From Escherichia phage XJA18-XJ-2024, in sequence record PV584117.1: 50,572 bases of DNA; one strand, given 5' to 3'. The position numbers and the translations under genes are program-made. Positions 36,430 through 37,050 of the stretch are shown one piece after another. The notes below the pieces were generated by a model, which was not told the origin of the DNA, made no database searches, and was given only the letters and a program-made list of their open reading frames with translations. Position 1 is the first letter of the stretch. Each line of letters starts with the position of its first letter.

Positions 36430-36830
36430 TCCTCTTTGTCTATTTGTGTGTAAATGGTGTCATAATGTGTCAACAATCGCCATTGTGACAGTGCGATACA
36501 GGGCTGTCAATGCCTGCGAGCCAATTTTAAGCTGTGTAACATTTGTCTAGCTGTCTAGAGTCACTATAGAAATATATAGCTCTCAAAAAAGTACTGTATA
36601 TATAAACATGCAGATAGAAATATGCCAACAGTACGCTAGACAATGTAAGACAACTATACACAACTATTACAATATAATTATCTATATATATAAATAAAGA
36701 AAACACTATATATATTATATATATACATATATCTACATGTCTATTGTTATGCGTCACAGTGCGTAATTTTGTCACAAGTGCGATTCTAGACAAATATTAC
36801 AGTCGTGACAAGTTAAAGTGTAATCGATAG
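36430..36830. promoter_or_regulatory. divergent control region with AT-rich core, inverted repeats and TGTCA/TGACA palindromes
   Basis: about 600 bp non-coding; 10-bp inverted repeat ATTTGTCTAG/CTAGACAAAT flanks TATATATA-rich core; near-palindrome TGTCAACAATCGCCATTGTGACA. Confidence 0.5.
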
Positions 36831-36847
36831 CACGTTTTGCTAAAAAT
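36827..36847 (+). promoter_or_regulatory. 20-bp box GATAGCACGTTTTGCTAAAAA
   Basis: box family member in rightward control region. Confidence 0.4.
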
Positions 36848-37030
36848 GGAGATGACTACCAGGCGAACCGGGTAACACTAAATCCTCCCTCTCACAATCA
36901 TTGCATTCCAAGCAACAATCACATCAACAGTTGCACATCATGCAACAATCACATTTCATCATTCGAGATCAATCGGGATCGCAATTATTCCAGATATTCC
37001 AGTATTGATGGAATAATGAGCAACTATTGG

Positions 37031-37050
37031 AATAGCATTTTTTGCAACAC
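37031..37050 (+). promoter_or_regulatory. promoter cassette box upstream of C5 methyltransferase
   Basis: AATAGCATTTTTTGCAACAC; 22 bp to TATTAT; hairpin CCCTGCCGATCGGG. Confidence 0.5.

Follow-up and report, generated by a model that had tools for sequence, protein, structure and literature searches.

The non-coding gap that separates the leftward from the rightward gene arm of Escherichia phage XJA18-XJ-2024 (record PV584117.1; the whole stretch of 50,572 nucleotides is called the window here) appears, from comparison with related genomes, to consist of two modules that evolve independently, a left module at 36424-36822 and a right module at 36823-37107. The left module carries arrays of a short motif whose positions are conserved among lineages and whose sequence is swapped, in step with the adjacent gene for a 171-amino-acid (aa) protein of the T1 ST77 family; this protein most likely binds the sites, and protein and sites would have switched specificity jointly in each lineage. 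The right module aligns with the point at which the T1 genome record opens. To the composite as a whole, with a packaging start and a box promoter on the right and, on the left, an early promoter and a platform for the 171-aa protein that would serve as an iteron-type origin or a nucleoprotein switch, we give roughly an even chance.

The window is a complete, circularly permuted Tunavirus genome (T1-like Drexlerviridae), and the 951 bases around the gap match 64 phage records at 80-96% identity, all of them Tunavirus (e.g., LeonhardEuler, SA12KD, Sfin-1, and pSf-2). An earlier reading of the sequence, referred to here as the original prediction, had described a gap of about 600 bp dividing divergent gene arms; the division is borne out with a true span of 684 bp, and every feature listed for the gap can be found in the sequence. 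The comparison took in 20 relatives; the gap was aligned from 17 phages, with identity measured segment by segment, and chance expectation within the gap was estimated from 1000 dinucleotide-preserving shuffles. Its borders and main parts are as follows.

36424-37107: non-coding gap of 684 bp between the leftward and rightward gene arms
35908-36423, minus strand: 171-aa gene of the T1 ST77 family (phrog_11083), first of the leftward arm and left border of the gap
36651-36750: AT core, 16% GC, in the left module
37108: ATG of a Dcm-like methylase gene, first of the rightward arm and right border of the gap

Two modules with separate histories

Between box 1 and box 2, two copies of an intergenic repeat described below, the right module (36823-37050) shares 82-98% identity with T1, ADB-2, AV106, and DELF2, and even a Klebsiella phage retains its TATTCCA array and box 2 at 84%. 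Identity across the left module is 49-59% with the T1 lineage and 31-42% with the AV106 lineage, the exception being the AT core (81-84% and 59%, respectively), whose flanks are only 50-58% identical between the window's lineage and that of T1. Haplotypes of the right module cross the lineages defined by the left module, and the two modules therefore recombine freely. These separate histories were missed in the original prediction, and no description of the two-module structure was found in the searchable literature, where the region, the assignment of the packaging site (pac), and a 21-nt repeat are already known. A comparable gap of ~650-780 bp occurs in every member of the Drexlerviridae examined, its length being kept across three genera.

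Motif arrays of the left module

The left module of the window contains four exact copies of TGTCTAG, a number reached by none of the 1000 shuffles, beside two copies of TGTCTAT; the other 49.9 kb of the genome hold a single TGTCTAG. The arrangement of the copies is given below, together with the 10-bp inverted repeat that the original prediction had placed around an AT-rich core.

36544-36558, plus strand: tandem TGTCTAG C TGTCTAG with an 8-bp period, the first copy forming the left arm of the inverted repeat
36636-36642, minus strand: inverted copy (CTAGACA)
36786-36792, minus strand: inverted copy in the right arm of the inverted repeat, overlapping the -10 hexamer of a leftward promoter-like site at 36783-36811
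36541-36550 and 36786-36795: inverted repeat arms ATTTGTCTAG and CTAGACAAAT, extendable to 16 nt at 94%

The AT-rich core between the arms is confirmed, and it has the lowest duplex stability of any 80-bp stretch in the 50.6-kb genome (-74.5 against a mean of -109 +/- 5.7 kcal/mol). The inverted repeat is likewise present, but a perfect 10-bp repeat is reached by 200 of the 1000 shuffles and is not unusual by itself; its arms are better described as members of the TGTCTAG array. Similarly, the TGTCA/TGACA half-sites reported for the gap do exist, but their number (six TGTCA) is only marginally high (33 of 1000 shuffles).

Related phages carry arrays of the same order built from other motifs, so that each lineage is characterised by one sequence.

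Lineage A (the window's own): TGTCTAG
Lineage B (T1, ADB-2, LHE71, Lg3, ULIM2): GTTAATC(G)
Lineage C (AV106, DELF2): GCAACCG
Lineage E (a Logan contig): TGTACAC
Klebsiella phage: GGTAAG
TLS: TGTTCAC

For lineages A, B, and C and the Klebsiella phage the observed count was reached by none of 300 shuffles, and the motifs of lineage E and TLS were found through k-mer counts alone. In each array, ~120-135 bp separate the left gene's start codon from two or three tandem copies with 8-9 bp spacing, which are followed by an inverted copy ~90 bp beyond the tandem, the AT core, and then one or two further inverted copies; the relative positions common to the lineages are approximately +145 to +165 for the tandem, +245 for the first inverted copy, and, past the core, +395 to +417 for the last. 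At the position of the tandem, lineage B has GTTAATCGT three times, lineage C GCAACCGAT two or three times, lineage E TGTACAC/TGTATAC, the Klebsiella phage GGTAAGCCT GGTAAG, and TLS TGTTCAC two or three times, and at the relative position of 36636-36642 stand CGATTAAC (lineage B), CGGTTGC (lineage C), and CTTACC (Klebsiella phage). Conservation of the inverted repeat in relatives, proposed as a check in the original prediction, is thus lineage-bound: its arms are present in all eight members of lineage A, and other lineages have a different motif at those positions. The share of all genomic copies that falls in the phage's own gap is 4/5 for TGTCTAG, 6/17 for GTTAATC in T1, and 3/15 for GCAACCG in AV106. 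In a lineage C member with 71% divergence, GCAACCG is unchanged amid drifting surroundings.

Several other readings of the gap were examined. A stretch at 36592-36611 (TACTGTATATATAAACATGC), which is the same in lineages A and B and sits between the tandem and inverted motif copies, was considered as a LexA (SOS) box and rejected, as it reads CTGT-N8-ACAT and not CTGT-N8-ACAG; the 3' G of the LexA box is not known to vary. A DnaA box at TTATTCCAG was also rejected (six of nine positions match). The only open reading frame (ORF) noted previously in the region (36527-36793, minus strand, 88 aa, TTG start) had already been dismissed as a gene, and this dismissal is upheld: the frame is of low complexity, spans the AT core, and has no counterpart in T1, ADB-2, or AV106. 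A nine-codon ORF behind box 1 (36846-36875) was rejected, its stop codon being lost in BIFF, IME18, and ULIM2. No Rfam family matched at E<=1 over 36000-37500, and folding of the right module gave z = -1.0 with a consensus structure devoid of supporting covariation, for which reasons the inverted repeats are regarded as DNA sites and not as RNA helices.

The adjacent 171-aa protein follows the motifs

When all ORFs of the window were compared with complete genomes of lineages A, B, and C, nearly all proteins proved to be 90-100% identical across the three lineages (e.g., TerS 98%, TerL 99%, the Cro-like helix-turn-helix (HTH) regulator 97%, and the helicases and primase 95-99%). The lineage A form of the 171-aa protein shares 52-60% identity with that of B and 24-27% with that of C, and an hhalign probability of 97.6% supports homology to the lineage C counterpart. 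The other variable proteins do not follow the lineages, and this gene is the sole exception; the 171-aa protein is the candidate binder because it alone tracks the lineage-specific motifs. The second genes of both arms were rejected as motif readers since they vary within a lineage, and TerS and the Cro-like regulator, being 97-98% identical across lineages, were discarded as candidates for reading the arrays. The original prediction had named the HTH regulator as reader of the inverted repeats, an assignment that fails because a regulator 97% identical where the repeats differ entirely cannot read them.

Two natural chimeras refine the association. The protein of P0048 combines a B-type N-terminus with an A-type C-terminus beside GTTAATC arrays, and that of pSf-2 combines an A-type N-terminus with a T1-type C-terminus beside TGTCTAG arrays; specificity would therefore map to the N-terminal ~130 residues, the part that changes in step with the motif across lineages A, B, C, and E. 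An AlphaFold2 model of the protein (predicted local distance difference test score, pLDDT, 85) has helices at residues 68-74 and 77-89 and a beta-hairpin at 93-117, a helix-helix-beta-hairpin topology spanning residues 68-117, behind which a disordered basic linker, KKRRSRKK, is conserved in lineages A, B, C, and E. Profile searches in Pfam, NCBIfam, PHROGs, and PDB returned only phrog_11083, of unknown function, with no meaningful PDB match and no similarity to any known initiator, and 191-aa homologues of the protein match DUF7174 below threshold. Site arrays that are conserved in position, swapped in sequence, and co-varying with an ST77-family gene were not found in the searchable literature. 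If confirmed, the protein-site pair would account for this segment varying more than any other in genomes that are otherwise near-identical.

The putative packaging end in the right module

The gap is also the place where the T1 and TLS genome records open, at the pac/terminal-repeat boundary (PMC7718038, PMC11447400), which the original prediction had overlooked. The pac of T1 and other T1-like phages has been placed in the untranslated region between two clusters of small genes (PMC7718038), and that of TLS was mapped by restriction analysis (PMC11447400). The T1 record (NC_005833) opens inside the gap and reads leftward to the ST77 and terminase genes; the TLS record (NC_009540) begins within the corresponding gap of 783 bp, where 195 bp separate its opening point from the gene that heads the other arm (162 bp in T1). 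Several records share the T1 opening point exactly, and others open 13-88 bp away, at 36858, 36878, 36892, and 36959. All of these fall within one 100-bp stretch, as might be expected of a somewhat imprecise pac cut, the choice of ends in the records not being verifiable. On the strength of this alignment, position 36946 is taken as the putative pac end and headful start, read leftward to the terminase genes; a pac sequence at the nucleotide level has never been defined in the readable literature. The elements around it are listed below.

36946/36947, minus strand: junction equivalent to base 1 of the T1 RefSeq record, where the T1 repeat_region 1..2800 begins, reading leftward from 36946
36900-36945: nested palindrome TTGCAT-5-GCAAC-14-GTTGC-5-ATGCAA, in a G-poor tract (36879-36983) and ending at the T1 junction
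36912-36924 and 36942-36954: direct repeat GCAACAATCACAT
36986-37034: TATTCCA array of four sites, direct at 36986 and 36995 and inverted at 37009 and 37028, abutting box 2

The 13-bp direct repeat claimed in the original prediction is present and unusual (6 of 1000 shuffles), with its second copy at 36942, 8 nt from the ~36950 given there, but it is degenerate in about half of the relatives and is therefore probably not a functional unit as such. Four TATTCCA sites were never reached in 1000 shuffles, and TLS has two AGACCAATCGGTCT palindromes where this array sits. Box 1 and a 35-nt block are almost invariant, the box and 36845-36878 being 89-98% conserved in lineages A, B, and C, and, among phages with TerS at 98% identity, conservation of the right module is 82-98%.

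Boxes and a candidate box-type promoter

The boxes are copies of a 21-nt intergenic repeat, aaATAGCACnnnTTGnTAAAA, found in TLS, T1, Rtp, and Rogue1, the function of which has been listed as an open question (PMC11447400). Both of the copies originally reported for the gap are present, and both point along the direction of transcription.

36827-36844, plus strand: box 1, with a perfect core ATAGCACnnnTTGnTAAA and all 14 specified positions of aaATAGCACnnnTTGnTAAAA matched; an orphan that lacks a -10 hexamer at +22 and lies 281 nt from any gene
37032-37049, plus strand: box 2, with three mismatches to aaATAGCACnnnTTGnTAAAA and 76 nt upstream of the ATG at 37108

Downstream of box 2, a TATTAT hexamer (37070-37075) follows the TTGCAA of the box by exactly 22 nt. 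The same spacing recurs across the genome, where about 20 of some 25 intergenic boxes have a TAnnnT hexamer (TATAGT, TAGAAT, TATGAT, TATTAT, etc.) exactly 22 nt after TTGnTA, and it is also found in TLS and in box 2 of the Klebsiella phage. Examples of box copies lie at 29373, 30746, 31266, 32813, 34097, 35152, 35892, 46511, and 50044 on the minus strand and at 37032, 38213, 40080, 40580, and 42742 on the plus strand. Box 2 with TATTAT is read as a candidate rightward promoter of the box type because its -10 hexamer stands at +22, as in the ~20 other boxes of the genome. The distance between repeat and start codon in TLS is likewise 76 nt (PMC11447400).

The core of the box is palindromic (TAGCA-N5-TGCTA), and its place near -43 of promoters that have no -35 hexamer would resemble a class II activator site; the Cro-like regulator (49985-50509) is a candidate for the protein that binds it. 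A fixed distance between box and -10 was not found described in the searchable literature and may answer the question left open for the 21-nt repeat. It was also observed that the -10 hexamers of many box promoters occupy the loop between short inverted arms, which vary between copies and remain complementary (GGTGA/TTACC, GGGTAT/ATGCCC, GGGAAT/ATTCCC, and GGCCA/TGGCC; sites include 29326-29345, 30699-30718, 31219-31238, 32766-32785, and 35105-35124).

Candidate leftward promoters

Two leftward sites in the left module resemble host-type promoters, and one of them is covered by a near-palindrome that had been reported previously and is found at 36468-36490.

36482-36510, minus strand: candidate early promoter P_L, TTGACA-17-CACAAT, with -35 TTGACA at 36505-36510 and an upstream TG (extended -10, TG-n-CACAAT) at 36482-36487
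36468-36490: near-palindrome TGTCAACAATCGCCATTGTGACA, operator-like, covering the -10 and start of P_L
36783-36811, minus strand: second promoter-like site, TTGTCA-17-TAGAAT, pointing into the AT core

In lineages A and B, the -35 of P_L and a UP-like element, ATTTTAAG (36525-36532), stand out as conserved islands; the SA12KD record annotates a promoter at this site, and AV106 has TTGACG-18-TAACAT at the same position. Other lineages have different palindromes where the near-palindrome lies (GTAACA..TGTTAC in B and TGTAAC..GTTACA in C). Positional equivalents of the second site are TTGACC-17-TACAAT in ADB-2 and TTGATT-17-TATGAT in T1, the latter read by eye. One of the TGTCTAT copies, at 36437, adjoins the ribosome-binding site. 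Only weak sigma-70 matches were found in the rightward direction, and the gene-proximal candidate there is of the box type. The original view of the gap as a hub of early promoters and operators can therefore be retained for the leftward side, where a candidate sigma-70-like promoter is positionally conserved, and not for an ordinary sigma-70 promoter on the rightward side.

A proposed origin or operator platform, and competing explanations

In the composite arrangement, the right module would carry the start of headful packaging (~36946, leftward to the terminase) and the box 2/TATTAT promoter for the rightward arm, and the left module would carry a host-type early promoter for the leftward arm and short asymmetric sites around the AT core. 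The 171-aa protein would occupy both flanks of the core in opposite orientations, the leftward promoter would fire into the AT tract, and the duplex would open there; the motif sites would also auto-regulate the early promoters that they overlap. The bolder proposal that the left module and the 171-aa ST77-family protein are the replication origin of T1-like phages and a structurally new initiator, situated beside pac, seems possible but somewhat doubtful; the geometry of the sites, with a promoter that would fire into the AT tract, resembles that of iteron-type and promoter-activated origins. The features by which iteron-type origins are known, at least three repeated sites (four TGTCTAG in the window and arrays in five other lineages) and an adjacent AT-rich element, are present. 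Under such a proposal it may tentatively be suggested that initiator specificity has been swapped repeatedly between phages that are otherwise 95-99% identical, as in the O/ori types of lambdoid phages.

A purely auto-regulatory role is about equally likely as an origin role, and the specific version of it considered here is a doubtful yet serious contender: the left module would be purely transcriptional, with the 171-aa protein acting as an early auto-regulator, repressor, or activator, the AT core serving as a promoter or UP element with bending, and the origin lying elsewhere, e.g., at 5660-6186. Motif copies and promoter elements do coincide (CTAGACA at 36786 on the -10 TAGAAT, the palindrome at 36468-36490 on the -10 of P_L, and TGTCTAT at 36437 beside the ribosome-binding site), and the 171-aa gene is transcribed first from P_L, a classic auto-regulatory layout; the gene may also be dispensable, given its frameshifted copies, and a conserved second AT-rich hub exists. 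However, asymmetric 7-9-mers in tandem at 8-9 bp, with inverted copies flanking a 100-bp tract of 16% GC, are typical of origins and not of dimeric operators, the AT core is much better conserved than its flanks, and promoter matches are at chance level. That the motifs around the core are instead pac recognition sites for the small terminase, as in P1 or SPP1, is improbable. The opening of the T1 and TLS records in the gap would suit such sites, as would the construction of the P1 and SPP1 pac from repeated short elements flanking the cleavage point, but TerS and TerL are 98-99% identical in phages whose motifs are unrelated (TGTCTAG, GTTAATCG, GCAACCG), and the reading is disfavoured because the terminase is conserved; moreover, the arrays lie 150-400 bp to the left of the mapped T1 end, which falls in the conserved module. 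Very improbable is an AT-rich spacer with chance repeats and no function beyond promoters, for which the 20% of shuffles that reach the 10-bp inverted repeat and the only marginally high TGTCA count could be cited, against four TGTCTAG and four TATTCCA sites that no shuffle reached, one architecture recurring with different motifs in six lineages, a gap length of ~650-780 bp kept across three genera, and a non-coding right module with 82-98% conservation.

Several observations weigh against the composite arrangement or its parts. The TATTCCA array is also kept in Klebsiella phages from a group with TerS at only ~50% identity, and it is therefore not clearly a TerS site. The 171-aa protein has no known DNA-binding fold, and its gene adjoins the sites, so that some of the co-variation may reflect simple linkage inside a single mosaic segment. 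In vB_SsoS_008 (L013 2482-2971) the ST77-family gene carries an apparent frameshift and in ADB-2 (L018 372-833) an apparent truncation, with the site array intact in both; these damaged copies are either sequencing errors (ADB-2 has other flagged frameshifts) or a sign of a dispensable gene, and a real frameshift or truncation would count against the gene encoding an essential initiator. In relatives, the gap holds no more promoter-like matches than shuffled sequence does, for which reason the leftward promoters stay candidates. The searchable literature contains no transcript, footprint, end-mapping, or replication data for T1-like phages, and on T1 transcript starts, the origin, and iterons it holds nothing beyond the TLS and SU57 papers. 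Finally, the second hub at 5660-6186 is ~90% conserved in all lineages and could be the real origin.

This second hub is a gene-free region between a RecE-like exonuclease gene and a Cor-like gene, and it holds the second least stable duplex of the genome (5941-6040, 18% GC), a core that resembles 36651-36750. TGTCTAT and TGT(A/T)ACAC sites occur on both of its flanks in opposite orientation. Because the hub is conserved in all lineages, it would be read by a conserved protein. The original prediction had called the gap a second origin candidate, and the hub may be the other candidate that this phrase implies.

Neighbouring genes and record ends

The gene arms on either side of the gap run as follows.

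Leftward arm: from 36423 through small genes to TerS (27532-26984 in the direction of the arm, i.e., 26984-27532), TerL, and the structural genes
Rightward arm: from the Dcm-like methylase (ATG 37108) to a DUF3987 helicase at 40590

The gene in second place in the leftward arm (35625-35819, minus strand) gives a hit (E = 3.5e-35) to the Pfam family PF25180, 'phage antiviral trigger protein Gp54'; LeonhardEuler, pSf-2, and T1 have an extra small gene between the Gp54-like and ST77-family genes that is absent from the window. A conserved leader, ACCAATCAGAGGA, consisting of a ribosome-binding site and a fixed upstream context, precedes many start codons (at 37084-37104 and at least at 11911, 30660, 32727, and 35067). 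Five public contigs, OR844704, OR844725, OR844658, IMGVR_UViG_3300045988_000165, and Logan DRR001793_1, end at approximately 36487, 36540, 36553, 36620, and 36812, respectively; contig ends in the variable left module probably reflect mixed populations that differ there or loss of coverage in AT-rich sequence, and not physical genome ends. When IMG/VR was scanned with single proteins, most of what came back was the same set of GenBank genomes.

Significance and comparison with known systems

T1 is one of the classical Delbruck phages, and its origin of replication, promoters, and pac sequence remain undefined. No origin-type repeats were found in the 2024 TLS study (PMC11447400). The AT-rich gap now yields a named protein and named 7-mers for binding and specificity-swap experiments, a packaging end predicted at about 36946, transcript starts predicted close to 36475 and 37082, and a promoter model for the 21-nt repeat, with the box at about -43 and a -10 at the fixed distance of 22 nt. 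If the protein-site pair is confirmed, it would also provide a handle to engineer or type Tunavirus phages.

The kind of system is a familiar one, in which sites and their cognate binding protein lie next to pac and promoters, and each part has its own closest parallel. The gap resembles the terminal non-coding region of T1 and TLS, being homologous to T1 over 36570-36946 with the same organisation of flanking arms, but over its left 400 bp it shares only ~50% identity with T1 and has another repeated motif, and the first rightward gene of the window encodes a Dcm-like methylase. Compared with the 21-nt repeat as described for TLS (PMC11447400), the fixed -10 distance and the palindromic core are features not mentioned there. 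The box promoters are like activator-dependent promoters (e.g., T4 MotA-box middle promoters and class II activator sites) in that an upstream element replaces the -35 at a fixed distance from a sigma-70-type -10; unlike the MotA type, the box is palindromic and centred near -43 (a 22-nt gap) instead of -30, and neither an AsiA nor a MotA homologue was seen.

The pac sites of SPP1 and P1 have short repeated elements on both sides of the cleavage point, and the putative end at 36946 is similarly surrounded by non-coding short repeats and palindromes (the TATTCCA array, the nested palindrome, and the G-poor tract). Unlike in SPP1 and P1, where pac lies in or beside terS, the putative pac is here ~9 kb upstream of that gene. 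The TerS of the window is of the P22 gp3 type (Pfam GP3_package), for which the known pac sites are inside gene 3. The left module, in turn, is like iteron-type origins (lambda O/ori-lambda and lambdoid hybrids, and Rep/ori of the Staphylococcus aureus pathogenicity islands, SaPI, where iterons flank an AT-rich tract) in having short repeated sites beside an AT-rich tract suited to melting, and, as with lambda O and SaPI Rep, site specificity shifts with the N-terminal part of the adjacent protein, the C-terminal part assorting independently.

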